Notes: generated by a model not told the origin, from the letters alone. A stretch of DNA of 64,000 nt from an uncultured Solibacteraceae bacterium (GCA_964584785.1 CAZPBY010000012.1:56590-120589), one strand, 5' to 3'; counted from the first letter of the stretch, positions 13,150 through 64,000 are shown. Made by a program: numbers and translations.

Positions 13150-13206
13150 ATGTGGAACACGGGAAGGCGGCCGACCGTATTCCGTGACACTCCGGAGGTC
13201 GTCAAG

Positions 13207-18787: not shown

Positions 18788-19101
18788 AGATGTATGATGC
18801 AATACAGGCATAATTTCAGAACACAAGAAATCTTCTGGCCGTCGGCTTGAGTAATGTTCGAAAGTCCGTGTTCGCCGATTTCAACGAGAGGCTGCTCGGC
18901 CCCGCCGGTTCTTCGGACTGCCCGGCGCGCGTTCCTCATCCATATTTTAAATTAATTTGACAAAGTCCATTTAAGTCATTAAGACTGAATTACTTCGACC
19001 TCGGTCTGAAATCAACATCCCTCGCGCCAAATCCCGGCAGCGACGCTGAACAGGGCGTGTCTGCCGCAACTCGTAACAATGAAACAAAGGAGTTGATCTG
19101 C

Positions 19102-27740: not shown

Positions 27741-27741
27741 A

Positions 27742-28935: not shown

Positions 28936-28967
28936 AGCAGTGTCCTTCTTTTACGAATTTCGAAGTG

Positions 28968-32235: not shown

Positions 32236-32257
32236 TCTGAAAAACCTCTAAGATCTG

Positions 32258-40288: not shown

Positions 40289-40954
40289 TTAAACGAGGTG
40301 TTTTGTAATCCAGTCTTCGGCGCCGTTGCTTGATGCCAGCTTGAGAACCGGATTCACGTCATAGAGCCGTTCGATTCGCTCGACCGTGAGATCGCTGGTA
40401 TCGATCACCATTGCGCAAGCCGTCGCTTTCAACTCGCGCGACTGACCTACTGAACCGGGATTGAGCAGGTAGGGCTTCTTGTCGGTCCGGCAAACGACGC
40501 GATGCGTTTGCCCGAAGAGGATCACGTCGTAGTCGAATTCACTCAGCCGGTCGAGAGCCGCAGAACCGGGATACATGTAATCCTCAATCGTACGCCACGG
40601 ACTGCCATGAACCATGAGGAAAGTCCGACCGTCGAGTCGTCCGGACCAGGTCAGAGGGAGTTCGGATAGCCATCGGCGGTTCTCGTCTGAAATGCTCTGT
40701 CGCGCAAACTCGACACCGAATCGGACACTCGCCGGAACATCGTCCGGACAGCCGTAGAGCAGAAAGTAGTCATGATTGCCGAGGATAGACCGCACGCCCA
40801 TGGCACGAACGTAGTCCATCACCTCATTTACCTGGCAATAGTATCCGGTGAGGTCACCGGCGCAAAGAATCCGATCGGCCGATTCGAGGACATCGCTCAA
40901 CGCCTTCAATGCTTCGAAATTTGCATGAAGATCACTGATCAGGGCGATGCGCAT
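40289..40954 (-). CDS. Metallophosphoesterase (calcineurin-like phosphoesterase, YfcE-like).
   Basis: MRIALISDLHANFEALKAL...ILCAGDLTGY...LGNHDYF carries the DxH...GD...GNHD/E motifs. Confidence 0.85.
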   Translation of the reverse strand: MRIALISDLHANFEALKALSDVLESADRILCAGDLTGYYCQVNEVMDYVRAMGVRSILGNHDYFLLYGCPDDVPASVRFGVEFARQSISDENRRWLSELPLTWSGRLDGRTFLMVHGSPWRTIEDYMYPGSAALDRLSEFDYDVILFGQTHRVVCRTDKKPYLLNPGSVGQSRELKATACAMVIDTSDLTVERIERLYDVNPVLKLASSNGAEDWITKHLV

Positions 40955-40958
40955 AGGC

Positions 40959-42095
40959 TTAATGCAGGATGTGAGTCAATGGAGTATCGACGGTGAGAGG
41001 GCTGACATCTCCGGGAACTTCGGGCATCGCTTCCTTTCGCATCCCGTAATCTTCAACTTCCAGTTCGTACAATTTTGGATTATCGAGCACGCTGGATTTG
41101 GACAATGTCGCGTAAGCGTCCGTATCGACGTACACTTCGTTCCAATAACGCAGCATGATTCCTTTTGTAATCCGAGGAAGGTCGACCGCCGGCTCACCGA
41201 GCGCGTAGTGGCGAATCGCGGCCTCGACTTCATTGAAGCCCAGCCGGGCTCGCACTGGAGTCGTTCCCGAGAATCGGACGTTCACCTCGAAGCAGACCGG
41301 ACGCCCACCGGACGTCCTGAGCTGGATGTTGCAGGGCCCCATGGGCCTCAAGGCCTGAGCAATCCGGACAGCCTCTTCACACACGTCGTCAAAACGTCCG
41401 ACTTCCGCGCGGGCCGTGGTTCCGCTGAGAAGATCGCGGCGCATGGCAATCGCTCCGCGGACTTTGCCTTCGCTGTCGCTGAAGCATCCGACGGTGTACT
41501 CGTGATCGGCGTCACCAAGTAACTCCTGAACGATATAGTCATTCCGGCTGCCGATGAATGCGAGATCGGCATCGTTGCGCAGTTCGAAAATGCCCCGCCC
41601 CCCTTTCCCGTTCAGCGGCTTTGCGAACAAAGGGTATCCGCACTCGGCGACAAGCGCCGCCAGCCTCTTCGTATCGGTTGAAGACGCGTAGCGGGGAAAG
41701 TTAAGGCCCTGCTGCTCCAGCCACTGGCAAGTGAGCAGCTTGTCACCACCAATACGAATAGCTTCCGGGCTACTCACGATGCAGATCGCGCCCGTCCGCT
41801 CTCGAATGAATTGAACGTGTTCCGACAGGACCGCAAGCACCGGTTCAACACCGGACAGGATGACGCCCACGCCCTCAGCCACCGATGTCTCGATCAGCCA
41901 GGGCAGGAAATCCGGACTTGCCGCCGGCGGACATACGTACGAACGATCGACGGTATACAAACCCATCGCTAGCGGACTAACACATGCACCCACAACTCTG
42001 CAATCGAGGTTGCTCAAAGCAAGAGCCTTCAGAATGCCTTGGCTGACAGAGCCTCCCACTCCAAGTACAAGCACTGTCAGCTTCTCGTTTTTCAT
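40959..42095 (-). CDS. ATP-grasp domain protein (carboxylate-amine ligase-like).
   Basis: 378 aa. N-terminal pre-ATP-grasp Rossmann region (LTVLVLGVGGSVSQGILKAL). Central ATP-grasp region (YPLFAKPLNGKGGRGIF). Overlaps the start of the downstream metallophosphoesterase closely. Confidence 0.7.
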   Translation of the reverse strand: MKNEKLTVLVLGVGGSVSQGILKALALSNLDCRVVGACVSPLAMGLYTVDRSYVCPPAASPDFLPWLIETSVAEGVGVILSGVEPVLAVLSEHVQFIRERTGAICIVSSPEAIRIGGDKLLTCQWLEQQGLNFPRYASSTDTKRLAALVAECGYPLFAKPLNGKGGRGIFELRNDADLAFIGSRNDYIVQELLGDADHEYTVGCFSDSEGKVRGAIAMRRDLLSGTTARAEVGRFDDVCEEAVRIAQALRPMGPCNIQLRTSGGRPVCFEVNVRFSGTTPVRARLGFNEVEAAIRHYALGEPAVDLPRITKGIMLRYWNEVYVDTDAYATLSKSSVLDNPKLYELEVEDYGMRKEAMPEVPGDVSPLTVDTPLTHILH

Positions 42096-42166
42096 ATCAA
42101 AACCCCGCGTAGACGCCCCCTTTTAACATGTGGCCCGCCGTTCGACCAGAGATGTTTTTACGGCGC

Positions 42167-50113: not shown

Positions 50114-50288
50114 GACACTAGCTCCCCAGTGTCCTGTCCTTGGCTCGTGTCGTGTGTGAGCTAAACTATCTTGCTTGCGCTCACTTACTCCACCTGCCGG
50201 CCATACTGCCGGCAAGATGGACCACATCGAAACTATTCGTACCCGAGGACGGACTATCTGTGCAGCCTATCGAATGAACGCGTCGTTT

Positions 50289-51875
50289 CTACGAGGGTTT
50301 ACCCTCAACCGGAAACAGGACCGTTTTATCGACAAGGCGAAAAAGAAAAGCACCTACCGTAAACGAACACATTGCAAATACCGTCGGCATGCCGACCGCC
50401 CAAAGCTGCAACATCGAGCGGGAGACGGTAGCCCACGCTGTAAACCTGCTCCCAATCATGATTCCAAGCGCGCCCAACCCGCACGTTGCGCCAAGCTTGA
50501 GAGCGAACACACGCAACGAACTCCATCCCAGAGGACCGAAACTCCTCTGGGCCTTCCATATCATGTAAATCGTATTGCTGATCGACGCCAGCGACACCGC
50601 AATAGGCAGGCCGGGCAATCCGATCAGGGCGACAAGTCCTATTGCAGCGGCCGTATGAACACCCACGAAGATAAGCGTACTGATGAGAGGTGTTCTGGTG
50701 TCCAGATTCGCGTAAAAGAGCGTTTGAGTGACGCTGACGATACGGCCTAAGAAGAGGTCTGGAATCAAAAACCGGATGATCACGCTGGTCAGTATCGCGT
50801 CCGTCCTTGTAAATCCTCCTCTGCCGAAGAGCAGCATCAGCAAAGGCTCTGCCGTAAGAGCCAGCCAGATGCACACCGGCAGACCCACGCACGCCAGGAG
50901 CTGGAGGCTTTCGAAGAAGGCTTTCCTCTGAGCTCGCAGATCGTTCGCCGACGCATGCTTCGCGATCAACGGCAGTGTTACTTGTACGACACTACCGAGA
51001 AGGATGCCGCCCATCGCCTGCACGATCCTGGCGGCATAACGCATCACCGTGACACTTCCGCTGCCCAGGAACGAGGCCAGCAGATTCTGGAGAACGGTCC
51101 CGCTCTCACTGACAATGTGCCCTGCCAGTGGATGCCGGAATGATCGGATGATTTCCTTCAATGTCGTTTCACCCGGTTGAAGGACCCACCTATAACGGAA
51201 CCCTTCTTTGCGGAGCGCGATGAAGAGAGCGGTCACCTGAACCGCACCACCCAACACCATTCCGACGGCTACCGCGCGTACACCAAACTGCCCGCGGCTG
51301 AGAATCAGCACGATCGTCGTCATGATGTTTCCGACAAGTTTGCCTCCGGACGAGATCAGGTATCGATGGCGCGCATACAATACCGACTGCAAAATCGAAG
51401 ACAGGCCCTGGCACAGCAGGATCCAGAATGCCGTCCGGCTCAGCCACACGGCCAGGCCGATCGTTTGCGAAGTCAAACCCGGAATCTGAAGCGGGACGAT
51501 AGCCGTCGACAACAATGTTCCAGCCGAACACACCACGAGCAGCGCCACGAACGCCGTTGTGAGTACATTTCGCAGCAGCGCCCATCCCAACTCGTCGCCG
51601 CGTCCGAAATGCTCACTGAACACGGGAACCAGAATCTTGGGACACTGTATCGAGAAGACGCCAATGAGGAGCGTCGGAATAGTCAGTGCGGTGAGGAGCG
51701 CGTCGGTTTGATAACCGACACCGAAAAAGTTCAGGATTAGTGCGTCGAGAACGAATCCGCTGACGACGCCGGCACCCGAGAGAACGGCGATGGTGCTCGC
51801 GTTCTTGAATAGATAATGTTTTGAACCGATTTTATGAGCAGTCATGAAGGTTGAATTAACGCGTCCTTTCGTCAC
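50289..51875 (-). CDS. MurJ/MviN-family (MOP superfamily) polysaccharide or lipid-linked oligosaccharide flippase.
   Basis: 528 aa, about 14 TM helices. The N-terminal region (GFVLDALILNFFGVGYQTDALLTALTIPTLLIGVF...VPVFSEHFGRGDE) parallels the MurJ N-terminus (ARDAIVARIFGAG..TDAFFVAFKLPNLLRRIF...VPILAEY). Confidence 0.75.
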   Translation of the reverse strand: MTKGRVNSTFMTAHKIGSKHYLFKNASTIAVLSGAGVVSGFVLDALILNFFGVGYQTDALLTALTIPTLLIGVFSIQCPKILVPVFSEHFGRGDELGWALLRNVLTTAFVALLVVCSAGTLLSTAIVPLQIPGLTSQTIGLAVWLSRTAFWILLCQGLSSILQSVLYARHRYLISSGGKLVGNIMTTIVLILSRGQFGVRAVAVGMVLGGAVQVTALFIALRKEGFRYRWVLQPGETTLKEIIRSFRHPLAGHIVSESGTVLQNLLASFLGSGSVTVMRYAARIVQAMGGILLGSVVQVTLPLIAKHASANDLRAQRKAFFESLQLLACVGLPVCIWLALTAEPLLMLLFGRGGFTRTDAILTSVIIRFLIPDLFLGRIVSVTQTLFYANLDTRTPLISTLIFVGVHTAAAIGLVALIGLPGLPIAVSLASISNTIYMIWKAQRSFGPLGWSSLRVFALKLGATCGLGALGIMIGSRFTAWATVSRSMLQLWAVGMPTVFAMCSFTVGAFLFRLVDKTVLFPVEGKPS

Positions 51876-52748: not shown

Positions 52749-53740
52749 GAGTCCTCTTTCGCGGTTCGCGTTCGCTGTCGAACGACCTGCTTATACACAT
52801 TCACGATTTCTTCAACCAGGCGCGGCTGATCGTATTTCAGCATCGCCTTCCTGCCATCGAACCCGGCGGCTCGTGATGTCTCGACCACCGACCTCAGCTT
52901 GTTGGCGATGTCGCTGATGTCGTCGGTGCAGATTTGTGTTCCCGGTATGTTCTTCAGGATTCCCCGCACATCACCGACGTCGGTCGACACAACGGGCAGG
53001 TTGCAGGCGAGAGCTTCCTTGATCGATGTCGGCGAACCTTCGCGAGAGGAACTAAGAATCATGGCGTCCGCGGCGCTGTAATACCAGGGCATCTCGCGAT
53101 TGTCCGAATTGTAGACACTCTCCAGCCGGACATTCATTCCTTCTTGAATCAATCGATCGACCGCTGCCTTAGCCAGATGGTATCGCTTCACTTCACGCGT
53201 CGGATCGAATGGGAATAGGACGATGTGTTTGTCGTCAGTCCAGCCTACTCGCGTCCGGGCCTCCATGCGATCGTAAGGCTTGAATATATTGAGATCCACA
53301 CCACAAGGGATAACGGTGCCTGGAATCCTCTTTTGCATCTCTTCCGACACCACAATGACTCTGTCGGCGAAGCGCCAGATTAAACGGCTGCAGAGGCTGT
53401 CGACTCCGCCGCCAAGAACATCGCTACCATGCAGTGTCAGGACAAGCGGGGACTGCACGCGAAACCACGCCGGAAATCCCGACAGGCCATAGTGCGCGTG
53501 CACTACATCGTAAGCCGCTCCACGCGTGATGCGAACGACTTCGGCGGCACCCTTCAAGTAGTTCAGCTTGGAGCGAAACCCAAGGATATTGACAACGTCG
53601 ACGGTGTGGCCAAAGGTTCGCAGTTGCTGCGCCTGCTGCCACACGAAGGCGCCATAACCCGGCCGTTCGGCGGATGGATACATGTTGGTGACAAATAGAA
53701 TTTTCACGACGCTAGTTTGACCGGGCGGTGTTCCGCACAA
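52736..53740 (-). CDS. Glycosyltransferase family 4 (GT-B fold).
   Basis: KILFVTNMYPSAERPGYGAFV N-terminus and a C-terminal EGSPTSIKEALACNLPVVSTDVGD (E-x7-E-like GT4 motif). Overlaps neighbouring genes at both ends. Confidence 0.8.
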   Translation of the reverse strand: MCGTPPGQTSVVKILFVTNMYPSAERPGYGAFVWQQAQQLRTFGHTVDVVNILGFRSKLNYLKGAAEVVRITRGAAYDVVHAHYGLSGFPAWFRVQSPLVLTLHGSDVLGGGVDSLCSRLIWRFADRVIVVSEEMQKRIPGTVIPCGVDLNIFKPYDRMEARTRVGWTDDKHIVLFPFDPTREVKRYHLAKAAVDRLIQEGMNVRLESVYNSDNREMPWYYSAADAMILSSSREGSPTSIKEALACNLPVVSTDVGDVRGILKNIPGTQICTDDISDIANKLRSVVETSRAAGFDGRKAMLKYDQPRLVEEIVNVYKQVVRQRTRTAKEDSCVA

Positions 53741-54884
53741 ATGACCGATAAATATTGAGGTGGCGGGCAGCGAGCTGTTTCAACGAAAACATCTCCTCGA
53801 CTCTTTCACGTCCGGCGATGCCAAGACGCGTGGCTTGACCCGATTGGTCCAGGAGCAATTCGATCTTCTCCGCCACACCTTTGTATTCACCTTGTGGCAC
53901 CAGAAATCCGTGGATGCCATTTTCGATGAGCTCGGCACTTCCCCCGCCATCCGTAACGACGACGGGCTTTCCCGCGGCCATGTACTCCATTACCGAATTC
54001 GATATTCCTTCCGTGAACGTGCATAGAACTCCGATGTCCATCTGCTGTATCAGCGGCTCCACATCGGTTCGCTGCCCCAGAAACTGGATTCGGTCGCCGC
54101 CGGGGACTACCAACTGCCTGCAAGCTTCGAGGTTCTTGCCGCCGCCAACCATCACAAAAATGACGTCGTCTCGCTTTGCAACGATACTTTGAGCGGCTCG
54201 AATGAATGTCGGGAAGTCTTTATAGTCGGAGAACTCGGCGACCATGCCGACAACCTTGCGGCCGTCTGCTTTGAGGTCGGATTCGTTTCGGCGAACCGAA
54301 ACCTGGCTGTGGAATCGATTCAAGTCCAGCCCATTGTAGATAACGTGATTCCCACGCGAATCGTGGTGCAGTCCTCGGCTTGCAAACCCGGCTTGTGAGT
54401 TACTGATTCGGGCATCGGCCAGGTACAACATCAGCTTGTGCCATTGCCAACGAGGCCCGCTTCCTGAAAAGGCGTTGCGCAATGTGGCGTTGATGATTCT
54501 GATTCCCATCAAACGAGCCAGTGGCCACGCATAAGACATGGCCATCTCGCTATTGGTGTGAATGATATCCGGCCGAAACTCGCGGAGAATCCGGAGCAGT
54601 CGGGTGAACACGCTGGGATCCCATCGAAACCGCCTCAAGAGGTAGACCAGCGGAATTCCGAGCTTTTGAATCTCCGCGACATAAAACTGTTCCGTTCCCA
54701 TGGTGACGACCAATGCATCGATCGATTGGTCGGCATTCAGCGCCTTCAGCAGCTCGCAAATCTGACGCTCCTTGCCTCCGACCCGCAGGCTGTCAACGAG
54801 GTAAAGGACGCGGACATTCGACCGAATGGTGTCGCTTATATCCGGCATCGCTTCAGCCGCTTGTGTGATGTAACCAGACTTCAT
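53712..54884 (-). CDS. Glycosyltransferase family 4.
   Basis: VLYLVDSLRVGGKERQ N-terminus (GT4 N-terminal domain). C-terminal EGISNSVMEYMAAGKPVVVTDGGGSAELI. Confidence 0.8.
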   Translation of the reverse strand: MKSGYITQAAEAMPDISDTIRSNVRVLYLVDSLRVGGKERQICELLKALNADQSIDALVVTMGTEQFYVAEIQKLGIPLVYLLRRFRWDPSVFTRLLRILREFRPDIIHTNSEMAMSYAWPLARLMGIRIINATLRNAFSGSGPRWQWHKLMLYLADARISNSQAGFASRGLHHDSRGNHVIYNGLDLNRFHSQVSVRRNESDLKADGRKVVGMVAEFSDYKDFPTFIRAAQSIVAKRDDVIFVMVGGGKNLEACRQLVVPGGDRIQFLGQRTDVEPLIQQMDIGVLCTFTEGISNSVMEYMAAGKPVVVTDGGGSAELIENGIHGFLVPQGEYKGVAEKIELLLDQSGQATRLGIAGRERVEEMFSLKQLAARHLNIYRSFVRNTARSN

Positions 54885-55900
54885 CGCGTCATCGCCATCG
54901 CGAGCGAGGGGTAACCGTAGGCCGCGTTCACGTCTCCAAGGATTTCATCCAGGGCGCCGACGTCAGAGCTTTTGAGGTCTTTAGCAAACTTGTAGTTCAT
55001 GTCCTTAAAAGCCGACTTGGTTCTTATGTAGTCGTGGACCTTAGACGATGGAGCGAGATGTGAAAACGTGAACAACCCGTCCATTGCTGCTATCGGGTCG
55101 CGCAAGGCATCTTCATAGCGAATTTCCAGATACTGGCCCGGACCGATCGCTTTAGCCTCTTCGCGAGCCATCAGCATGATTCGACGCCACTGGACCGCCG
55201 TCAGGGCGACCGGCGTCTTGCCGTACTTGTCGTAGAGTTCGATATCTTCTTCGGTCAGACCTCCGCGCCACCACGGTTTGTGATAGCCGCCACCATTCTT
55301 CCAAAAATCGACTTTCATCAGGGAGTTCACGACCGCGCGGCCGTCTCGGACAACGTGGATGAAAAGCGCATCGGGAAAGATGCTGTTGAGATAGGCCATC
55401 CTCGTCGGTCCTGTTATCTTGGTCGCGAACCTGTGCTTGCTCTGGTACCTCGTGACCTTGTCAACGAGCCGGACGACCTTATCCTTTTCTTCCTGCGACG
55501 CCTTTTGGTTCAACAGGTAGTCGAATCTGAATTTTTGCCCGCAGCAGAGTTCCCACGCAGGGTAGCACTCAACGGCATAAGGACGAGGTATCCTGAACGC
55601 CGACTCACCGTTCTGCCTCTTGGCGCCGAGTAAATCATTCGAAATTGCCAGTCGCGAAAATAATGACACCACTGGAAAACGAGGGAATCGGTAGAGGTAA
55701 TTCGAGAACCACGCCAGGTCGGGGTGTGAGGAAAACGCCTCAAACAGAATCGTCGTCCCACTCCTTGGGGCACCAACAAAAAAAATCGGTCGATCCACTT
55801 GTTCGCTCATCATTTGTTTTTCATCCTTGGAATACTGAAAGAAAGTCGTCCTTGAAAACCTACCCGACGTGTTTGTACAAGAGCTCACCGACGAGGACAA
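54881..55900 (-). CDS. Sulfotransferase-family protein (PAPS-dependent).
   Basis: PIFFVGAPRSGTTILFEAFSSHP matches the 5'-PSB loop (GxPRSGTT) of sulfotransferases. The 3'-PB region (RDGRAVVNSL) also fits. 339 aa. Confidence 0.75.
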   Translation of the reverse strand: MSSSVSSCTNTSGRFSRTTFFQYSKDEKQMMSEQVDRPIFFVGAPRSGTTILFEAFSSHPDLAWFSNYLYRFPRFPVVSLFSRLAISNDLLGAKRQNGESAFRIPRPYAVECYPAWELCCGQKFRFDYLLNQKASQEEKDKVVRLVDKVTRYQSKHRFATKITGPTRMAYLNSIFPDALFIHVVRDGRAVVNSLMKVDFWKNGGGYHKPWWRGGLTEEDIELYDKYGKTPVALTAVQWRRIMLMAREEAKAIGPGQYLEIRYEDALRDPIAAMDGLFTFSHLAPSSKVHDYIRTKSAFKDMNYKFAKDLKSSDVGALDEILGDVNAAYGYPSLAMAMTR

Positions 55901-56927
55901 ATAGCCGCTCCGGAATCACAGGCAGCACTTTCCGGTAAATCGGATTTGTCCTCGGCTTCAAGTTGCCGGCCTCGTCTTGAGTTTGTAGCGGTTTGGGTTT
56001 CGTCGTGTCGCGGTAATAGAACAATTCAGCGCGGTGCGCTCCCAGACGGTTTTTGAAAGTGATCAGGCCGTGATGGTCCAGATCCGAACGTCCCAGATCG
56101 AACTGCGTGGCTCCCTGGGACTTCGCTTCCCGTATCGTCTGCCAGCATAGAAACGGCATGGCGCCGAGATTGTTATACCGATCGTCCGAGCAGGCATATT
56201 TGTAAACGATGGTGTCCCTGAAACTCAGCGTCATGGTGGCCGCAATGGGAACGCCGTCCTTTGACGCGATCCGGATGGCAACCTGATCACCGAGACACTG
56301 AACGACGTTTTCAAACCATTTGAAAGGTTGAGGTGGCACACCGTGCCGGCGCCGGGTGGATACGAACAGCCGGTAGAAACCGTTCAACAGAGCCGCGGAA
56401 TTGCCGGATTCATATTGCAGGTTTTCCCGCTCCGCGCGCCTCACGGCGTTTCTCTCACTCTTAACGAATCCCTTGAAGATCTCCTCTTCCGTTCGTGAAA
56501 GATCCAGCGTGTGCAGGCAGAAGCTCTTGAAAGTCCCGAAGCCGGAAACGCCGTCCAGCGTCGATGCCGGCAACACCGATGGGCGTATCTCGACGAACCG
56601 TTGCTGGGAACGGCGACGCTCTTCATGCGCAAAACACAACAATTCTTTGAGCGCTGCACCGCTATGAACCAGCGGACTGCAATGATCCGAAAACGGCAGC
56701 GATACACTTCGGTTGCCCGTCAACCAGCTCTTCAAATGGCAGAGAACCAGACCGTCCCTGAGCTGCCCCGACGGTAGCGTTGTGACATACGCCACCGGTT
56801 CAAATCCGTACGTCAGCTTCAACGCCTCGAGCCATTTGGCGGTATGGAAGATGCATGCCGCCGGATGACTCTCAACGAACGTATGCCAACGCGGATCTTG
56901 AATCGGATCGATTCTGGTGACTGTCAT
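55860..56927 (-). CDS. FemAB-family protein (GNAT-fold aminoacyl/peptidyl transferase-like), of the PEP-CTERM-locus-associated type.
   Basis: 355 aa. N-terminus MTVTRIDPIQDPRWHTFVESHPAACIFHTAKWLEALKLTYGFEP is typical of the FemAB-like proteins encoded next to exosortase/EPS genes. Confidence 0.65.
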   Translation of the reverse strand: MTVTRIDPIQDPRWHTFVESHPAACIFHTAKWLEALKLTYGFEPVAYVTTLPSGQLRDGLVLCHLKSWLTGNRSVSLPFSDHCSPLVHSGAALKELLCFAHEERRRSQQRFVEIRPSVLPASTLDGVSGFGTFKSFCLHTLDLSRTEEEIFKGFVKSERNAVRRAERENLQYESGNSAALLNGFYRLFVSTRRRHGVPPQPFKWFENVVQCLGDQVAIRIASKDGVPIAATMTLSFRDTIVYKYACSDDRYNNLGAMPFLCWQTIREAKSQGATQFDLGRSDLDHHGLITFKNRLGAHRAELFYYRDTTKPKPLQTQDEAGNLKPRTNPIYRKVLPVIPERLFVLVGELLYKHVG

Positions 56928-56950
56928 GTTACGAAGCGGATGGTCCGCAG

Positions 56951-58240
56951 TTACTTACACGCCACCCGCTCGACAAATCGGACGTAGGCGTCCCTTTGCC
57001 GGGGCCAGTTATAAACGGAATTGAATTTTTCGGAATTCCTGGCCAGTTGCTCGCGCCGGGCCTTGTCGCGATACAGCTTACGGATGCGATCGGCCAGATC
57101 CTCGACGTCCTCCGCGTTGAAGAACTCGACAGTGTCTTCGCTGAAGTAGTGCGACACGACACTCGTTCGAGCGACAACGGCAGGGACACCCAGCGCGACG
57201 TACTCCAGCAACTTCGTGGGGAGGATACCGTCCGTGAAGACATCGCGCCGATAGGGAACAATACCGACATCATGCGACTGAATAAGCTCTGCGAGTTCAA
57301 CCGACGTCAGAAACTCCGTCGTTACCTCGACATCCTTCTGAAGGCCAAGCTCCTTCACCAGTTCGCGAATGGCATCAATGTAGTCGCCGCGGCCATGTAT
57401 CCTCAGAGAGATGTTCGGTATCTCGTTACGAACCGATTGGTAAGCCCTCAGCAGAAGGTCGATACCATATCGATGTGCGAGCGTCCCATGGTAGAGCAGC
57501 CTTAGCGGAAGCCCCTCCCCTCCGTTCTTTTGCAAACGGCGGCTCAGTGGCTGTCGAGTGAAGTGTGTTTCATCCGCCAGATTCATCACAACGAAGCACT
57601 TCTCCTTCGGAACACCGCGCTTGATAAGCGTGTCCCTCCAAAGATCCGTTACCGTGATAACCCGATGCGCAAACCGGCATGATAGGTATTCTTGCAATTT
57701 AAGAACGTATGCCGGCAGGCTATCCATGGACTGTTTGAATCTGGAACAATAGAACTCCGGCATCAGGTCGTGAATGTCGAGAATGACCCGACTGCCGGTC
57801 AGGCGTGGAACAAGCGCCGCAAACACAAGGAAGTCGGGCAGATTGTGACACTGCACAACGTTGAAACGGTTCTTCAAATGAAGCCGCGACACTTTCAGGA
57901 ATGCCAGGAAGGCAAAAGCCACGTATTCGAACAGTTGTGCGAATCGGCTCCATTTCTTCTGGCCGAGGCCGATGCGATGAATCGACAGTTGCCCATTCGA
58001 TTCATACAGCGGCTCCGAGCCGAAGCGCCGGCAGATGACGTCGACCACGTGGCCTTGCGCCATCAGTGCCTCGGCCTCGCGCTGTACACGGACCTCGGAA
58101 AAGGGGTAGTAGTTTTGCACGACCATGCAATGCCGGAGAGGCTTTGCGGCCGTGGCTTGTATCTTCGCCTCTGAAACCTCAGAGGGATCCAGTATCGAGG
58201 GTGATCTCATAGCTTTTTCCGGAAGTTTTCGATCGGACAC
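56951..58240 (-). CDS. Glycosyltransferase family 4 (PEP-CTERM/EpsH1-system-associated sugar transferase type).
   Basis: 429 aa with a GT-B two-domain layout. C-terminal region LLRLLYHGTLAHRYGIDLLL...EFLTSVELAELIQSHDVGIVPY matches the GT4 C-terminal domain. Confidence 0.75.
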   Translation of the reverse strand: MSDRKLPEKAMRSPSILDPSEVSEAKIQATAAKPLRHCMVVQNYYPFSEVRVQREAEALMAQGHVVDVICRRFGSEPLYESNGQLSIHRIGLGQKKWSRFAQLFEYVAFAFLAFLKVSRLHLKNRFNVVQCHNLPDFLVFAALVPRLTGSRVILDIHDLMPEFYCSRFKQSMDSLPAYVLKLQEYLSCRFAHRVITVTDLWRDTLIKRGVPKEKCFVVMNLADETHFTRQPLSRRLQKNGGEGLPLRLLYHGTLAHRYGIDLLLRAYQSVRNEIPNISLRIHGRGDYIDAIRELVKELGLQKDVEVTTEFLTSVELAELIQSHDVGIVPYRRDVFTDGILPTKLLEYVALGVPAVVARTSVVSHYFSEDTVEFFNAEDVEDLADRIRKLYRDKARREQLARNSEKFNSVYNWPRQRDAYVRFVERVACK

Positions 58241-58242
58241 GG

Positions 58243-59448
58243 TTAGGCGACGGCTGCCCGGGTCGCGTAGAACTCTTTAATCGCATCGACGACCTTGTCC
58301 TGCTGTTCGTCGCGCAGTTGCGGATACATCGGCAGTGACAGGATTTGTGAAGCGGCCTCCTCACAAACGGGGAAATCGCCCTTGCGATATCCAAGATGCG
58401 CATAGGCGTCCTGTAAGTGGAGTGGCAATGGATAGTGCAGACCGGTTCCGATTCCCTGCGCCGTGAGGTGCGACTGCAGTTGATCGCGAACCGCGGTTCG
58501 AATCACATAAAGGTGGTAGACACCACGACTCCAGTCCGGCTCAACGGGCAATGCCAGTTCCTCGACCTCGGCCAGCAGTTCGTTGTAACGCTTCGCCAAT
58601 CGAGCGCGGCTCGCGTTCCATTCGGCCAGGTAGCGCAATTTGACGCTCAAGATGCCGGTCTGAACGGCGTCCAGCCGGCCATTGTAACCCTCGAATGCAT
58701 GGAAGTACTTCTGACGTTGGCCGTGATCTCGGAGCATGCGGACCTTGGCCGCAATGGCGTCATCGTCTGTCGTCAATCCACCGCCTTCACCCATGGCGCC
58801 CAGATTTTTGGCAGGATAAAAACTGAAAGCGGCGGCCCTTCCAACACTGCCGGCCGTTTTCCACTCCGACTTCTTCGGCAATAGACATTCCGCGCCGTGC
58901 GCCTGGCAGGCGTCTTCGACGACGAACAGGCCGTATCGCCCGGCGATTTCGAGAATGCCTTCCATGTCTGCCATCTGCCCGTACAGATGAACCGGCACGA
59001 TAGCCTTCACCCGCAGGCCGGTTGCTCGATCGATCGGCAGCCCGGTTTTCGAATCATGCTCACACGCCGTCTCCAGGTAATTTGCCAGCGCGATAGTGCT
59101 CATGTTTGACGTTGCCGGGTCGATGTCGATGAATCGGCAAGTGCCACCGGCCTGTGTGATCGCTTCGCCGGTTGCAATGAACGTATTCGGCACCGTGAGC
59201 ACGGCGTCGCCCGCGGTGATACCCGCGGCGATCAGCGCGAAACGAAGAGCGTCGGTACCGCTGTTCAGAGCGACGCTGTGTTTCGTTCCGCAAAACTCGG
59301 CAAACTCTTTCTCAAACCTCTGGACAAAGGGTCCGCCGATGGCGATGCCGGTCGTGAGCACTTCATCAAAAACCGCCTGAAGTTGCTCTTTCAGTTCTAG
59401 GTTGCTTTGAATTAAATCTACGAATGGAACGATTGTTTGACTATTCAT
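58243..59448 (-). CDS. DegT/DnrJ/EryC1/StrS-family PLP-dependent nucleotide-sugar aminotransferase.
   Basis: 401 aa. PLP-binding region SFYPAKNLGAMGEGGGLTTDD (Lys within the AKNLG motif). N-terminal substrate domain. Confidence 0.85.
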   Translation of the reverse strand: MNSQTIVPFVDLIQSNLELKEQLQAVFDEVLTTGIAIGGPFVQRFEKEFAEFCGTKHSVALNSGTDALRFALIAAGITAGDAVLTVPNTFIATGEAITQAGGTCRFIDIDPATSNMSTIALANYLETACEHDSKTGLPIDRATGLRVKAIVPVHLYGQMADMEGILEIAGRYGLFVVEDACQAHGAECLLPKKSEWKTAGSVGRAAAFSFYPAKNLGAMGEGGGLTTDDDAIAAKVRMLRDHGQRQKYFHAFEGYNGRLDAVQTGILSVKLRYLAEWNASRARLAKRYNELLAEVEELALPVEPDWSRGVYHLYVIRTAVRDQLQSHLTAQGIGTGLHYPLPLHLQDAYAHLGYRKGDFPVCEEAASQILSLPMYPQLRDEQQDKVVDAIKEFYATRAAVA

Positions 59449-59941
59449 TAGTACCTGTCTCCTCCTTGATATAACGAACGATACGCGCTGGGTTTCCTAC
59501 GACGATTGCCGATGGCGGCACATCCTTGGTAACGACGCTGCCTGCACCGACAATCGCGTTTTCGCCGATGGTGACATTCGCCAGGATGGTTGTGCCCGAT
59601 CCGATGGAGGCTCCCTTTTTCACGAGGGTAGGGCTGACACTCCAATCCGCTTCTGTTTGCAACTGTCCAGAGCCGGTGGTGGCTCTGGGATAAAGATCAT
59701 TAATAAAAGTCACGCTATGGCCGATGAAGACGTTGTCCTCGATCGTGACACCTTCACAAACGAATGTATGGCTGGATATCTTGCAGTTCTTTCCAACAAA
59801 CGCGTTTTTCTGGATCTCGACAAATGCACCGATCTTGGTGTTGTCTCCGACCGTGCAGCCATAAAGGTTGATGAACCTTGCTAGTCTGACGTTCTCACCC
59901 AACCGAACATCATCGGCAATACTTACCAAATCGTTCTTCAT
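59441..59941 (-). CDS. Left-handed beta-helix (hexapeptide-repeat) sugar N-acetyltransferase (WbbJ/PglD-like).
   Basis: 166 aa of tandem hexapeptide repeats (IGAFVEIQKNAFVGKNCKISSHTFVCEGVTIEDNVFIGHSVTF). The gene is paired with the DegT aminotransferase gene immediately downstream on the minus strand (58243-59448). Confidence 0.8.
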   Translation of the reverse strand: MKNDLVSIADDVRLGENVRLARFINLYGCTVGDNTKIGAFVEIQKNAFVGKNCKISSHTFVCEGVTIEDNVFIGHSVTFINDLYPRATTGSGQLQTEADWSVSPTLVKKGASIGSGTTILANVTIGENAIVGAGSVVTKDVPPSAIVVGNPARIVRYIKEETGTNE

Positions 59942-59974
59942 TGTTCCTTTTCTTCCTTTTCAATGATTCCAAAC

Positions 59975-61342
59975 CTACCGGCGCGACACTCCGAGCTTGT
60001 CCATAAGCTCATAAAGTGTCGGCCTGCTGATCGACAACTCCGCTGCAGCCCGAGTCACGTTGCCCCTGTTCTTGTTCAGTGCGGCTTCGATCATCTGACG
60101 CTCCAGCGCTTCTCGCGCCTGCCCCAACGACTGCCCCTCGTATTCAGCGTAGGACGTTGCAAGACCGAGATCTTCGGGCGTAACCCTTCCGGTCTCCGCC
60201 ATGATGGCCGCCCGTTGAATTCTGTTTTCGAGTTCCCGGACGTTTCCGGGCCACGAGTGCGATTCGATCGCTTTAATGGCTCGCGGCGTAAAGACAAGCT
60301 TCTTCTGCTGCGCGTCCGACTGCCGTTGCAGGAATGCGTTGGCCAGCTGGATCACGTCGCCTTCGCGCTGACGCAGCGGAGGCATGGACACAACCACTAC
60401 GGCAAGCCGATAGTAAAGGTCTTCGCGGAAGCGTCCATCGAGCATCGCTTTGGTCAAGTCGATGTTGGTCGCGGCAATCACCTTTGCATCCACTTTGATC
60501 AATGTTCTGCCGCCGACTCTCTCGAATTCACGTTCCTGCAAAAACCGCAGAAGCTTTACTTGTAAGGCCGGTGACAGTTCTCCGATCTCGTCGAGGAACA
60601 AGGTCCCACGCTGGGCCAATTCGATTCGCCCCTGCCGCTGGACGTGAGCCCCGGTGAACGCTCCCTTTTCGTGGCCGAAGAGTTCGCTCTCCAGAAGGTT
60701 TTCGGGAATGGCTCCGCAGTTGATGGCGATAAACGGGCCGTTCTTTCTCGAACTCAGACGGTGGATGGCACGCGCGACAAGCTCCTTGCCCGTGCCGCTT
60801 TCGCCTCCGATCAGAACGGAGGCATCCGAGCCCGACATCTTTCGGATTGACGCGAATACCGATTGCATTTGCGGACCGCTCCCGATGATGCCTTCCAGCG
60901 AATCGGTCTGGCCGTTTGCCAGCAGTTCGCGATGGTCGAGCTCAAGCTGATGAACGTGTACAGCCCGTGTCATCACAATCTTGAGTTCGTCGATGTTGAC
61001 CGGCTTGCAGAAGAAATCGTAGGCACCCTGCGCTATCGCCTGAATGCCGTTCTCTTTTTCATCCTGACCGGTAATGACAATAATCTTGAGCGATGGATCG
61101 GACTGAAGTAGATCCGCCAGCGCGGCAAAACCTTCACGGGTGTCGCCGGGAGATGGAGGGAGTCCGAGATCCAGAGTCACAACAGCGGGTCTGTGTTGCT
61201 TCAAGACCTGAAGAGCGGTCTGCCTGTCTTCAGCCAGCAATACCTCGAACTGTTGCGTGAGAGCCCATCTCATCTGGCTTCTCACTTCGTCGTCATCTTC
61301 AACAATCAAAATCGTAGGCAGTTCCATACGTTTTAATTCCAT
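59975..61342 (-). CDS. prsR: Sigma-54-dependent response regulator PrsR (PEP-CTERM-box response regulator type).
   Basis: N-terminal receiver domain (ILIVEDDDEVRSQ...DLGLPPSPGDTREGF, the PrsR-characteristic insert). AAA+ sigma-54 interaction domain (GESGTGKE...GAFTGA). C-terminal Fis-type HTH. Confidence 0.85.
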   Translation of the reverse strand: MELKRMELPTILIVEDDDEVRSQMRWALTQQFEVLLAEDRQTALQVLKQHRPAVVTLDLGLPPSPGDTREGFAALADLLQSDPSLKIIVITGQDEKENGIQAIAQGAYDFFCKPVNIDELKIVMTRAVHVHQLELDHRELLANGQTDSLEGIIGSGPQMQSVFASIRKMSGSDASVLIGGESGTGKELVARAIHRLSSRKNGPFIAINCGAIPENLLESELFGHEKGAFTGAHVQRQGRIELAQRGTLFLDEIGELSPALQVKLLRFLQEREFERVGGRTLIKVDAKVIAATNIDLTKAMLDGRFREDLYYRLAVVVVSMPPLRQREGDVIQLANAFLQRQSDAQQKKLVFTPRAIKAIESHSWPGNVRELENRIQRAAIMAETGRVTPEDLGLATSYAEYEGQSLGQAREALERQMIEAALNKNRGNVTRAAAELSISRPTLYELMDKLGVSRR

Positions 61343-62583
61343 TAGAACGCAAAGTGCAGTGCTTTGGCGCTCGACGGGACGTTAACCATATATCGTGAGG
61401 GTGAATCCGCGGGAGCCGCTAGGACCGGTAAGGGAATGCGGTCGCCATTAGCTCGTTCCAACCGAGCTGTCAAAGGTCGCGCAGAAGCCGGTAACATCAG
61501 TGTAACTTCCGGATCTCCAAACCTGGACGTATCCAGTGAACTTCGAATCGAAAGAGTGGTTTCGTTGTTCAACCGGTACGCCGTGATGTGCATCTGCCGG
61601 CGGGCCTCGCAGTAAGCCGCAAGGTCTCCCATGGTCGCAACCCAAATGTTGCCGGACCTCTGCTCATTATCGAAGTAGTGCAGGATTCGGCATAAATGGT
61701 CTTCAAAAAGTTCCGACGGGTCTGACGGATGAAGCCATAAAGAGTAGGCAGCGCGGCGTTCCATCGCCTTTTCGACAAAGATTCTTACCTTCTCGAGGTA
61801 ATCGTAGTGCCGTGCGGACCGCATGTTCATGCTTTCGTAAATCTTGTACACGCCGGATGGTGTTCGTTCCGGATATGAGCATCGAATACGATCGTCTCGG
61901 TGCCGGACCGCGACAATTCCGTCCTCGGCCAGCAACGGCAGGTAGGAATGGCCCATGATGTTGTGCGGAAACACAAGAGATCGCGGTGTTACACCGAAGG
62001 GGCGCATCGCACCGGCGCAACTCTCGATCTCACGATGAACCAGATCGGGCGTGGAGCAGCGATCCGAAAAATTGATGTGGCTGAACGTGTGAGTTCCGAT
62101 CTCATGATCCATCTTCGCGTCGACGATCTGCTGCACAAGATCAGGCGCATACCATAAGGGATCCCTTGTCCAGTCGGAGCAGGGATCGTGCAGATACCAG
62201 TCGCCGGTCCATCGGTCGTTAGCTCGCGGCCTGGGCATGTTGGCATGAGCAAGGCCGGAGCAAGAACGTGTGCAGCTCTCGAGAAACAGGTGGCCGACGG
62301 TGGCCCAGGTGATCGGAATGGAGAAGTCATCCAGCATTTTCAAAAGCACCGGCATGTTGGCGCGTTCCTGCACGCCTCTCCACATCGCTGCGTCCGGATC
62401 ACGCCCGCGCCAGGCCCAGCTCATCTCAAAGTCCGCAGAGATCGATACGGCTGCACGTGCATCATTCTTGAATGGTGCGATCTCGATTCCAGAAAAGGAC
62501 CGATGCTCAGGCGGATGACCTGGAGCGAAGTTCCCCTTCAACCCGAAAATCGTTTTCAGAAGTGTGGGGTTATCTACTTTCAT
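61342..62583 (-). CDS. Polysaccharide deacetylase (NodB-homology) family protein inserted between prsK and prsR.
   Basis: 413 aa with the motifs ISADFEMSW and HEIGTHTFSH. The stop lies 4 nt from the prsK stop and the start overlaps the prsR start position. Confidence 0.6.
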   Translation of the reverse strand: MKVDNPTLLKTIFGLKGNFAPGHPPEHRSFSGIEIAPFKNDARAAVSISADFEMSWAWRGRDPDAAMWRGVQERANMPVLLKMLDDFSIPITWATVGHLFLESCTRSCSGLAHANMPRPRANDRWTGDWYLHDPCSDWTRDPLWYAPDLVQQIVDAKMDHEIGTHTFSHINFSDRCSTPDLVHREIESCAGAMRPFGVTPRSLVFPHNIMGHSYLPLLAEDGIVAVRHRDDRIRCSYPERTPSGVYKIYESMNMRSARHYDYLEKVRIFVEKAMERRAAYSLWLHPSDPSELFEDHLCRILHYFDNEQRSGNIWVATMGDLAAYCEARRQMHITAYRLNNETTLSIRSSLDTSRFGDPEVTLMLPASARPLTARLERANGDRIPLPVLAAPADSPSRYMVNVPSSAKALHFAF

Positions 62584-62586
62584 GAC

Positions 62587-64000
62587 TCAACTGCGCGGTA
62601 AAACCACCCGGAACTCCGTCCCTTTGCCGAGTGCGCTATTCACCTCGATCCTTCCTCGATGCGCTTCAACGATCAACTTACTGTGAAACAACCCAATGCC
62701 CAGGCCCTTCTTCTTGGTCGTCTGAAAGGGCCGGAACAGAGCATTCTCAATGAACTCTTCGGACATTCCACATCCGTTGTCGCGAACGGAAAAACCTACC
62801 ATGTTCCCTTCGTGGATAGTTGCGACACGGATCACACCGTTGCCGTTGACTGCTTCGCTGGCGTTAATAACTAAATTCGTTAGCACCTTGTGCATTTGTT
62901 CGGAATCGACAAGGGCTTTGGGTATCGGCCGCAAGTCCGGCTGGATGTCCGCTTTCACATTTTTGAACTCACTCAGCGTGTTTGTGATGAGGGCGTTCAA
63001 ATCGCCTTCGGACACCTTGAGTTCGATGTTGCGCTTGAGCATCGCAAGCCGGCTGCACATATCGTCGATCTTCGCCACGCTTGTCGAGATGACGCGAAGC
63101 GCGTCCGCCCGGAACTCCGGACTCTCAAAGTTTGCCGGCAGATTCTGCATCGTCAGAGAAAGTCTCGAAGCCAGATTCTTCAGGTCGTGAACGAAGAATG
63201 TGGATACCGTTTGAAAAGTCTCGATCTCTTTTGCGTGCCTGAGGCGCGCCGAGAACTTGACGTTCAGGATGCTTGCAGCGAGGTGCGATGCCAGTGTCTC
63301 CAGCAGCACAAAGTCTTCGGCAGAGAGATCTTTCACGCCGCCGATTCGATCGTCGTTCAGCGTCATGACGCCGACCAACTCGCCGGCCGCCTGCAGCCGG
63401 ACGACATACCGCATTTTCGATTCGCGAAAACATTCGCCACTGGCAGCCATGATCTCCGCAGGCCAGGCGAACTCCCGCTCCGACAAATCCACGCAATTGG
63501 AATGATCTTGAAAGAAACGGATCAGATCCGCAGCGCTCTTTCCCGCTCTTTCCAACTCTTTGGCATGGACGGCGTGAATCGCCGTCGATCCGGCCAGCGT
63601 CAGCCGTTGTTGCGTTTCGTCCGCCAGCCACACGCTGACGGAAAGGATGTCCAGCGACTCCGAGACCATCTTGCTCACGGCTCCACTCAGTTCGCTTGCA
63701 TCCAGTAGCGACGCTGTTCTCCTGGTGAGATCCATCCACACGCTGCGGTAGTCGTAGGCCGGCCGATTGAAGTGTCGTGTTACAAAGAGCCGCAGCTTGT
63801 GTCGAAGGCGATTCGACAGCAACAGAACCGCAAGCACGATCAACGACAGGACAACGACGAACGCGTCGACCGGAATCGACGGGCTCGGGGCCAGATCGCG
63901 CGCAAATCGCGCCAGCACACCTACCGAAATGAGGTAAATGCCGACGAGGATGAGGGTCAAAGAGTTCTGAATCGTGACCGTGGAAAGGTAGACATCCACA
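62587..64000 (-). CDS. prsK: Sensor histidine kinase PrsK (PEP-CTERM-system type), truncated at its N-terminus by the window edge.
   Basis: GAF-like domain, HisKA (FFVHDLKNLASRL) and HATPase_c (RDNGCGM...GLGIGL). The ORF runs open to position 63999 with no genuine ATG (GTG at the edge). TM helices are present at the N-terminal end of the visible portion. Confidence 0.8.
   Translation of the reverse strand, partial: VDVYLSTVTIQNSLTLILVGIYLISVGVLARFARDLAPSPSIPVDAFVVVLSLIVLAVLLLSNRLRHKLRLFVTRHFNRPAYDYRSVWMDLTRRTASLLDASELSGAVSKMVSESLDILSVSVWLADETQQRLTLAGSTAIHAVHAKELERAGKSAADLIRFFQDHSNCVDLSEREFAWPAEIMAASGECFRESKMRYVVRLQAAGELVGVMTLNDDRIGGVKDLSAEDFVLLETLASHLAASILNVKFSARLRHAKEIETFQTVSTFFVHDLKNLASRLSLTMQNLPANFESPEFRADALRVISTSVAKIDDMCSRLAMLKRNIELKVSEGDLNALITNTLSEFKNVKADIQPDLRPIPKALVDSEQMHKVLTNLVINASEAVNGNGVIRVATIHEGNMVGFSVRDNGCGMSEEFIENALFRPFQTTKKKGLGIGLFHSKLIVEAHRGRIEVNSALGKGTEFRVVLPRS

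Follow-up and report, generated by a model that had tools for sequence, protein, structure and literature searches.

The exopolysaccharide (EPS) loci that combine PEP-CTERM/exosortase (EpsH/XrtA) with PrsK, PrsR, and PrsT were defined by Haft et al. (2006; PMC1569441). A stretch of 64,000 nucleotides from an uncultured Solibacteraceae bacterium (GCA_964584785.1, CAZPBY010000012.1:56590-120589), referred to here as the window, ends in a minus-strand train of polysaccharide genes that includes prsK and prsR. An original prediction, made from the sequence alone, had described this train as a PrsK/PrsR-headed locus with a giant surface protein embedded in it, and with neither an exosortase nor PEP-CTERM cargo. 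The question raised by this locus is whether PrsK and PrsR have here become detached from exosortase-mediated sorting, or whether the apparently missing components lie elsewhere. The data obtained in this study support the latter: very probably, a conserved Wzx/Wzy-type EPS locus of Terriglobia that is associated with an exosortase continues into the interval with its downstream genes, and the giant protein is a predicted enzyme of that locus with an expanded set of PKD domains.

An exosortase gene about 3 kb beyond the end of the window

Profile searches detected no exosortase within the 64-kb window itself. To extend the sequence past the end of the window, public metagenome contigs were queried with an exact 43-mer (window 63941-63983), which retrieved the contig JACXTT010030659.1 (L015; 6,543 bp). 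Its first 1,368 nt corresponded to window positions 62633-64000 with 0 mismatches, and it provided 5.2 kb of further sequence. The full-length PrsK could thereby be rebuilt in frame as a protein of 701 aa that scored 373.9 bits against TIGR02916 (cutoff, 300; profile positions 5-679), placing it in the family at equivalog level; the window fragment alone had scored 296.9 bits. PrsR also belongs to its family at equivalog level (Table 1), and the two scores together support the assignment of the train to a PrsK/PrsR-associated polysaccharide locus, as originally proposed.

Directly upstream of prsK, on the same strand and separated from it by 34 nt, L015 encodes a tetratricopeptide repeat (TPR) protein of 769 aa. 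Its best-matching family was TIGR02917 (PrsT), at 277.6 bits compared with an equivalog cutoff of 312.2, and the orthologous protein from a related locus (L002) scored 369.6 bits. Upstream of the PrsT-like gene, co-directional and overlapping it by 4 nt, is a gene for a 312-aa exosortase, located 3.0 to 4.0 kb outside the window. The protein scored 147.5 bits with PF09721, 116.3 bits with TIGR02602 (cutoff, 105.55), and 50.9 bits with TIGR04178 (cutoff, 23). The motifs APECSGIRS, FKNxxRI, and LHxEGG were retained, and Cys190, Arg235, and His256 were invariant in an alignment (A2). Conserved Cys, Arg, and His residues were noted in exosortase (EpsH) by Haft et al. (2006; PMC1569441), and the gene on the overlapping contig therefore qualifies as an exosortase-family member on this basis as well. 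A further conserved gene of at least 400 aa (L015 5333-6535, minus strand) precedes the exosortase gene and overlaps it by 4 nt, so that the junctions on L015, from this gene through the exosortase and PrsT-like genes to prsK, are −4, −4, and +34 nt.

Because the contig is identical to the window over 1,368 nt, the apparent absence of an exosortase is an edge effect. The anomaly of PrsK/PrsR without an exosortase is an artifact of a window that cuts through prsK. The claim that prsK heads the train is likewise superseded, as three or more further genes of the same orientation lie ahead of it just outside the window, and the window and L015 together contain a co-directional train of 18 or more genes that spans no less than 28.9 kb. 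What seems to be lacking at a window edge may thus be located just outside it; in this case, the anomaly was gone with 5 kb more sequence.

Conservation of the locus in Terriglobia

The order xrt–prsT–prsK was shared by four related loci (L001, L002, the P0122 locus, and L017). L001, identified in a GTDB scan with the PrsK fragment, is a Terriglobia metagenome-assembled genome whose PrsK is 67% identical. Its genes are arranged in the order chain-length determinant, tyrosine autokinase, priming phosphoglycosyltransferase, Gfo/Idh/MocA dehydrogenase, a conserved gene without a family match, exosortase, PrsT, PrsK, PrsR, left-handed β-helix (LbH) acetyltransferase, and DegT, with the prsR–LbH–DegT continuation after prsK matching that of the window. 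L002 is a second contig with exosortase–PrsT–PrsK. P0122 is the closest database relative of the exosortase (60% identity) and is encoded on a 61.5-kb contig. There, genes for Wzy_C, a GT4 glycosyltransferase, a 599-aa PKD/β-helix protein, an AsnB-type amidotransferase, and two unknown proteins lie upstream of the exosortase and PrsT genes, followed by a 42-aa open reading frame (ORF), a gene for a 269-aa protein, and those for PrsK, PrsR, a 423-aa CE4-like protein, LbH, and DegT. The 269-aa protein between prsT and prsK gave a weak PEP-CTERM match (PF07589).

L017, a complete genome of 6.47 Mb (ERZ26694896), has the same xrt–prsT–prsK–prsR core, broken up by insertion sequence (IS) elements. 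Its prsR is split by a Transposase_mut insertion. The IS elements and the split prsR suggest that the exosortase/PrsKRT system may be decaying in this strain.

The closest loci being from Terriglobia, the host lineage also appears to be Terriglobia (Acidobacteriota). The acidobacterial origin of the window is supported by an ADOP-family duplicated permease at window 13150-15651 on the plus strand (TIGR03434, 884.8 bits).

The gene upstream of the exosortase gene, encoding about 450 aa, was itself conserved, its copies at L015 5333-6535 (minus strand) and L001 4570-5931 (plus strand) being 59% identical. Neither copy matched any Pfam or NCBIfam family. In the P0122 locus, the same position, upstream of the exosortase gene, is held by a gene of 464 aa.

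The giant PKD/β-helix protein

The largest gene of the train encodes a protein of 2,648 aa with a Sec signal peptide, an IPT-like domain, 23 K319L-type PKD domains (Pfam), a right-handed β-helix, and a choice-of-anchor Q cap (NF041518, 26 bits) at the extreme C terminus. The signal peptide, which follows M39 of the longest ORF, ends in …GAFA-QA (AFA-QA site), and no sorting tail or anchor was found at the C terminus beyond the cap. The IPT domain of the original prediction can be recognized by eye at the N terminus, but Pfam reported none at E ≤ 0.01. At the DNA level, the repeats have a period of 267 nt and are 69 to 75% identical, a divergence at which the PKD expansion would be old.

To place this protein, its C-terminal 482 aa (residues ~2167-2648, numbered from ATG 50113), corresponding to a domain of about 480 aa, were used as a query, and 126 homologous proteins were found. 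The 120 that were listed ranged from 282 to 802 aa, most of them with one K319L-type PKD domain and a β-helix. Among these listed matches, the giant C terminus was 50 to 53% identical to proteins of 599 to 619 aa. One of them, P0242 (52% identical), is encoded 16 nt after a MurJ-family gene in an EPS locus that also holds a CE4-like gene, Wzy_C, FemAB, and the PAPS (3′-phosphoadenosine 5′-phosphosulfate) synthesis genes CysD/CysNC. Another, P0244 (50% identical), is the 599-aa gene product of the P0122 locus, four genes upstream of the exosortase. Direct succession of a MurJ-family gene and a PKD/β-helix gene was recorded in L018. Since the closest homologues are regular constituents of the same kind of locus, the giant protein does not appear to be a foreign insertion but rather the orthologous component of about 600 aa, PKD plus β-helix, with an expanded stalk. 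Its description as a surface protein embedded in the locus was therefore overstated.

An AlphaFold model of the C-terminal domain, built on 57 homologues, had a predicted local distance difference test (pLDDT) value of 92.6 and a predicted template modeling (pTM) score of 0.93, with the fold of a right-handed parallel β-helix. Foldseek comparison with the PDB matched GH136 lacto-N-biosidases, the PL9 enzyme Pel9A, the AlgE4/E6 epimerases, PL6 alginate and chondroitin lyases, phage tailspike depolymerases, and the Vibrio matrix lyase RbmB, as well as the adhesin PfbA. These matches had a probability of 1.00, TM-scores of 0.35 to 0.51, and identities of 9 to 14%. No CAZy-specific family of Pfam or NCBIfam exceeded its cutoff for the β-helix, with Beta_helix (18.4 bits) and DUF5123 (21.7 bits) both remaining below the gathering threshold (GA). 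Across the 57 homologues, 16 residues were invariant, D, E, R, and K among them (D249, K254, E207, and R197 in domain numbering). From the model, the family most likely comprises EPS-cleaving or EPS-modifying enzymes, likely acting on the polymer of their own locus. The earlier suggestion of a glycan-active protein is consistent with this, given that it is secreted and that its predicted C-terminal fold is a β-helix of the glycan-active type.

A secreted glycan-active enzyme within a biosynthetic operon, as predicted here, is also a feature of other EPS systems (AlgL/AlgG, PslG, PelA, BcsZ, and RbmB), and the modeled right-handed β-helix would be shared with AlgG/AlgE, PL6, and RbmB. Sequence similarity to these enzymes was undetectable, as judged from a PDB sequence search with the 570-aa β-helix paralogue and from the fold-match identities given above. 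A further difference is the PKD stalk of exceptional length to which the domain is fused. Likeness to phage tailspike and capsule depolymerases was evident from the fold matches, which included CBA120 TSP3, Kp32gp38, Fri1 gp49, and Dettilon gp208, and from the 48% identity of P0250, described below. Unlike the tailspikes, the giant is a chromosomal product with a Sec signal, encoded within an EPS operon with nothing nearby to suggest a prophage.

P0250 is a PKD plus β-helix protein of 622 aa, 48% identical over the whole giant C-terminal domain and encoded at L021 5693-7561 and L022 10001-11869 (Logan SRR22868756 and SRR22868764). Its neighbors are a terminase, a portal protein, Mu-F, an HK97-like capsid protein, a second NosD/β-helix protein, and a tail terminator, that is, a phage structural module. 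The occurrence of such a close homologue in this setting suggests that the host EPS enzyme and a phage depolymerase may belong to one family. A conserved PKD/β-helix family of the locus linked to phage tailspike-like proteins would provide a candidate depolymerase for acidobacterial EPS.

Cargo and sigma-54-dependent regulation

PEP-CTERM tails were searched for using the motif [PVILAS][EDT]P followed by a transmembrane (TM) segment and basic residues, together with a second, broader search for any TM segment plus basic residues at the C terminus. Both took in all six reading frames of the window, the merged sequence of 69 kb (window plus L015 extension), and five related loci. No PEP-CTERM-like tail was found on any window ORF, in the merged sequence, or in the five related loci, the only hits being antisense or spurious ORFs. 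The flanks, which had been proposed as the place to look for an exosortase and its cargo, thus yielded the exosortase and the PrsT-like gene, while no PEP-CTERM-tailed gene was found in the 5 kb beyond the window. Haft et al. (2006) reported that most PEP-CTERM genes are scattered single-gene units with a large intergenic region before each and that PrsK/PrsR adjoin EpsH in only 3 of 13 genomes (PMC1569441). A locus without PEP-CTERM cargo is hence to be expected, because the cargo genes are mostly scattered. The earlier observation that the large secreted proteins have no PEP-CTERM tail remains correct within the window but loses its diagnostic value, cargo normally being dispersed. That the exosortase is part of an active sorting system is a prediction.

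An upstream sequence shared ahead of target genes, an enhancer motif, was described in Proteobacteria by Haft et al. (2006; PMC1569441). The window was scanned with the sigma-54 consensus TGGCAC-N5-TTGCW, allowing up to 2 mismatches. One sigma-54-like −24/−12 element, TGGCGGACTGATTGCT, is located at 20398-20413 (plus strand) in the 822-nt spacer upstream of the 1,048-aa secreted protein, in a window where the number of matches was at chance level. The layout of this spacer resembles that described for PrsR-controlled cargo genes. A secreted 303-aa protein with HAF repeats, a repeat typical of PEP-CTERM proteins, is encoded at window 19057-19968 (plus strand; TIGR02913, 35.3 bits) and lacks a PEP-CTERM tail.

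Gene content and organization of the train

The minus-strand ORFs run unbroken from 64000 to 40289 and amount to 15 genes rather than the 20 initially counted. Their order and family names were confirmed by the ORF calls and by Pfam and NCBIfam profile searches of the window proteins (Table 1).

Table 1. Features of the polysaccharide gene train and of neighboring regions of the window
Feature	Coordinates	Strand	Evidence and remarks
prsK, sensor histidine kinase, 3′ two-thirds	62587..64000	-	TIGR02916 296.9 bits, profile positions 221-679 only; cut by window end
Divergent CE4/NodB-like polysaccharide deacetylase, 413 aa, between prsK and prsR	61342..62583	-	PF01522 27.6 bits (GA 23.1)
prsR, sigma-54-dependent response regulator, REC–AAA+–HTH_8	59975..61342	-	TIGR02915 606.2 bits (cutoff 502.6); Pfam Response_reg, Sigma54_activat, HTH_8
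LbH (hexapeptide) sugar N-acetyltransferase	59441..59941	-	PF00132 82.7 bits; best NCBIfam NeuD/PglB/VioB 84 bits, below cutoff
DegT/DnrJ/EryC1 sugar aminotransferase	58243..59448	-	PF01041 351.4 bits
GT4 glycosyltransferase	56951..58240	-	PF00534, PF13439, and related families
FemAB-like acyl/aminoacyl transferase, PEP-CTERM-locus type	55860..56927	-	PF02388 58.7 bits; best NCBIfam TIGR03019 137.1 bits (cutoff 260)
PAPS-type sulfotransferase	54881..55813	-	PF13469 78 bits; likely start ATG 55813, longest ORF from TTG 55900
GT4 glycosyltransferase, stp2-like	53712..54884	-	Best NCBIfam TIGR03088 (PEP-CTERM/XrtA system glycosyltransferase) 182.9 bits (cutoff 409)
GT4 glycosyltransferase	52736..53740	-	PF13439, PF00534
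CE4 polysaccharide deacetylase, PgaB/IcaB-like	51876..52748	-	PF01522 56.2 bits; partial TIGR03938, TIGR03933
MurJ-family (MOP) flippase, presumed lipid-linked repeat-unit flipping	50289..51875	-	PF03023 206.3 bits; TIGR01695 217.2 bits, just under cutoff 235.55
Spacer before giant gene	50114..50288	-	175 nt; contains 7-bp GC hairpin
Giant secreted protein, 2,648 aa	42167..50113	-	PF22352 in 23 stretches, 682 bits; C-terminal β-helix
ATP-grasp ligase ("carbamoyl-phosphate-synthase-like")	40959..42095	-	NF009402 301.6 bits (cutoff 218); PF15632, PF02655
YfcE-like metallophosphoesterase, last train gene	40289..40954	-	PF12850 91 bits; 4 nt after ATP-grasp gene
Second polysaccharide block	25857..33706	-	AsnB-type amidotransferase, WecE-type aminotransferase, GT2, RmlA, PMT_2-type membrane glycosyltransferase, Wzy_C polymerase/ligase-like protein
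Secreted β-helix protein, 1,048 aa, IPT-like plus four PKD domains	20791-23937	+	PF22352, PF13229
Secreted β-helix protein, 570 aa	24131-25843	+	58% identical to 1,048-aa protein over 555 aa
Secreted protein, 2,059 aa, three DUF4082, DMFA2_C, several fn3/purple-acid-phosphatase-N domains	34087-40266	+	Convergent with train, 22 nt apart

Counted from the longest ORFs, the 12 junctions away from the giant gene ranged from −41 to +33 nt, in line with the −41 to +34 nt originally given for the train. At the giant gene that range was exceeded, with longest-ORF gaps of +61 nt on the upstream side and +71 nt on the downstream side, the former becoming +175 nt when counted from the better start, ATG 50113. 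This start is preceded by a Shine-Dalgarno (SD)-like GGGGAG and directly followed by the Sec signal peptide. The claim of ATGA or longer overlaps also has to be qualified, since the −41 and −29 overlaps hinge on TTG longest-ORF starts and later starts exist in both genes. In the sulfotransferase gene, ATG 55813 has an SD-like AAGGA before it and the PAPS-binding loop within about 14 residues after it; in the second TTG-started gene of the long-overlap pair, the alternative start is GTG 53707.

Scans for sigma-70 promoters and terminators in the 40- to 52-kb region found nothing in the spacers around the giant gene; in the 175-nt spacer, there was accordingly no sigma-70-like promoter and no terminator-like site, nor did the spacer match the sigma-54 consensus. 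No Rfam family matched the window from 40 to 64 kb, this spacer included. The hairpin TGCCGGC-AGTATG-GCCGGCA is located at 50195-50214 (minus strand), in the spacer that separates the MurJ-family gene from the probable giant start codon, and is not followed by a T-run. In the relatives, the orthologue of the giant gene sits 8 to 16 nt from its upstream neighbor, and co-transcription would therefore be favored there.

The 413-aa CE4/NodB-like protein between prsK and prsR had no NCBIfam match, and a PDB sequence search with it gave nothing significant. It was 54% identical to the product of a 412-aa gene adjoining Wzy_C in L018. A homologue of 423 aa comes after prsR in the P0122 locus, where it intervenes before the LbH–DegT pair, while in L001 that pair comes after prsR and no homologue is present between prsK and prsR. 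The gene thus appears to be a conserved member of the locus that varies in position, and its other positions in the relatives would make the prsK–prsR placement a local rearrangement. A novel regulatory insert between prsK and prsR was considered for this gene and ruled out on the grounds that it is a conserved biosynthetic member of the locus elsewhere in relatives.

The ATP-grasp protein has widespread homologues at about 60% identity, one of which was sampled in Terriglobales within another EPS locus. Owing to this other EPS context, a specific tie of the ATP-grasp/phosphoesterase pair to the giant gene was not supported.

Predicted polysaccharide

The encoded enzymes are consistent with the EPS originally envisaged, namely, one that would be N-acetylated, deacetylated, probably sulfated, and possibly decorated with amino acids, and they point to an amino-sugar-rich polymer. 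Based on what is known of these families, the DegT and LbH enzymes would make an acetamido sugar. The relatives carry a UDP-GlcNAc 3-dehydrogenase-like gene, which suggests that this could proceed by a WbpB/E/D-like route. The three GT4 enzymes would then assemble the repeat unit on undecaprenyl phosphate, with the FemAB-like and ATP-grasp enzymes possibly adding an amino acid and the sulfotransferase transferring sulfate from PAPS. The unit would be flipped by the MurJ-family protein and polymerized by the Wzy_C protein (32258-33706), and the two CE4 enzymes would partly de-N-acetylate the polymer. The giant's β-helix enzyme may trim the polymer of its own locus, as AlgL, PslG, PelA, and RbmB do in other EPS systems, and PrsK/PrsR with sigma-54 would control PEP-CTERM cargo genes elsewhere in the genome.

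With regard to sulfation, the translated sulfotransferase holds the 5′-phosphosulfate-binding (5′-PSB) loop GAPRSGTT and the 3′-phosphate-binding (3′-PB) motif VVRDGRAVVNS. The window contains this sulfotransferase and no PAPS-synthesis genes. In L018 (18600-21442, plus strand), PAPS-synthesis genes for CysD and CysN/CysC adjoin the FemAB and PKD/β-helix genes, which would fit a sulfated EPS in the lineage. In the literature that was searched, no report of sulfotransferases in acidobacterial EPS was found; sulfation of the polymer is here predicted for an acidobacterial EPS locus.

Relation to known systems and alternative explanations

Judged by its exosortase, PrsK, and PrsR, the locus is a member of the PEP-CTERM/exosortase EPS systems. 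It resembles them in the Cys/Arg/His motifs of the exosortase, in a PrsK and a PrsR above the equivalog cutoffs, and in the TPR gene adjoining prsK. The FemAB-like, stp2-like GT4, AsnB-type amidotransferase, CE4, and Wzy_C genes are further points of likeness, as are the chain-length determinant, tyrosine kinase, and priming transferase of the relatives. It differs from them in its host, which belongs to the Acidobacteriota and not to the Proteobacteria, in the CE4-like gene between prsK and prsR, and in the addition of sulfotransferase, ATP-grasp, and PKD/β-helix genes. Exosortase-linked EPS clusters have been described in the literature as widespread, and work on exosortase EPS loci has been carried out in Zoogloea and Aquincola (PMC9850573). 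For the Acidobacteriota, a phylum whose matrix biology has been little studied, the genes that make up such a locus are documented here.

Several observations weigh against this assignment or against parts of it. The exosortase scored below the cutoff of every named subtype, with 160.9 bits for XrtC (cutoff, 300), 123.5 for XrtA (208), 110.6 for XrtW (425), 106.4 for XrtD (400), 82.5 for XrtV (313), and 75.3 for XrtB (275). The PrsT-, FemAB-, and stp2-like proteins and the amidotransferase were also all below their equivalog cutoffs, the last reaching 564.3 bits with its best match, TIGR03108 (XrtA/PEP-CTERM system amidotransferase; cutoff, 816.9). Because every named subtype model scored below its cutoff, the locus is not, strictly speaking, an XrtA system. 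Within the 69 kb examined, PEP-CTERM cargo genes were absent, and sigma-54 promoters were not enriched in the window scan, with 31 matches compared to 29.3 expected. Co-transcription across the gaps of 175 and 71 nt that flank the giant gene is putative. Its fold matches have modest TM-scores and include the adhesin PfbA, catalysis being a prediction, and more distant homologues of its β-helix occur in unrelated contexts.

That PrsK/PrsR might be uncoupled from exosortase/PEP-CTERM sorting, with nothing to govern except an unusual EPS together with a giant surface protein, was suggested by the lack of an exosortase or PEP-CTERM tail inside the 64-kb window and of cargo in the 5 kb beyond it. 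Such uncoupling is now hardly credible. Some 3 kb outside the window, on a contig identical over 1,368 nt, there is an exosortase gene that is co-directional and overlaps its neighbors by 4 nt; the same arrangement is found in four related loci, and in the P0122 locus a PEP-CTERM gene, although a weak match, stands between prsT and prsK. The dispersal that is normal for cargo genes (PMC1569441) further weakens the case.

A closer contender concerns the giant protein, which might be a noncatalytic adhesin or matrix scaffold whose PKD stalk presents a β-helix binding module tying the EPS to the cell or to surfaces. Its secreted architecture with 23 Ig-like PKD domains, the pneumococcal adhesin PfbA among the fold matches, and a choice-of-anchor Q cap typical of surface proteins would all suit this role. 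It was nevertheless considered rather unlikely, as the best fold matches were enzymes (GH136, PL9, PL6, epimerase, and tailspike depolymerases), a 48%-identical homologue is found in a phage structural module, where depolymerases sit, charged residues were invariant across the 57 homologues, and the C terminus has no anchor or sorting signal. In the synthesis of peptidoglycan, amino acids are attached by enzymes of the FemAB and ATP-grasp types, which raises another option, namely, that the MurJ, FemAB, ATP-grasp, and deacetylase set builds a peptidoglycan-like or protein-linked envelope glycan and not a free EPS. The MurJ-family score of 217.2, near the MurJ equivalog cutoff of 235.55, and the nearby genes for a PMT_2-type transferase and a Wzy_C "O-antigen ligase-like" protein are compatible with that option. 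It is improbable, in that the best family of the FemAB protein is the XrtA/PEP-CTERM-associated subfamily found in PEP-CTERM loci (TIGR03019) and the relatives have the same genes beside a chain-length determinant, a tyrosine autokinase, and a priming phosphoglycosyltransferase, i.e., Wzx/Wzy EPS machinery.

The exosortase-associated EPS locus with a PKD-expanded enzyme is thus the preferred reading. A more far-reaching picture can be offered only tentatively, in which Terriglobia would possess an unnamed exosortase subtype wired to PrsK/PrsR/PrsT, a sulfated amino-sugar-rich EPS, a cargo signal that may be noncanonical, and a β-helix depolymerase family shared with phages, its stalk of about 23 PKD domains possibly reaching through a thick capsule. 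The features of most interest are the expansion to 23 PKD domains, the predicted sulfated EPS, and an exosortase outside all named subtypes.

Other polysaccharide genes and secreted proteins in the window

The last gene of the train, encoding the metallophosphoesterase, is convergent with the plus-strand gene of the 2,059-aa protein, which ends at 40266. The 1,048- and 570-aa proteins represent a β-helix family besides that of the giant. When the C terminus of the giant was compared with the 570-aa protein by BLASTP, only the terminal DIGAxE/DIGAFxF (PDIGAxE) cap aligned, and the two β-helix families of the window therefore do not appear to be close paralogues. A PDB sequence search with the 570-aa protein gave nothing significant.

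In the second polysaccharide block, matches were obtained to NF008687 (591 bits), TIGR01207 (477 bits), PF04932, and PF13231. Genes for Wzy_C, a PKD/β-helix protein, and AsnB are found upstream of the exosortase in the P0122 locus. An NDP-sugar dehydrogenase is encoded farther away, at window 17465-18826. Taking this gene and the second block into account, the polysaccharide system would appear to span at least about 52 kb.

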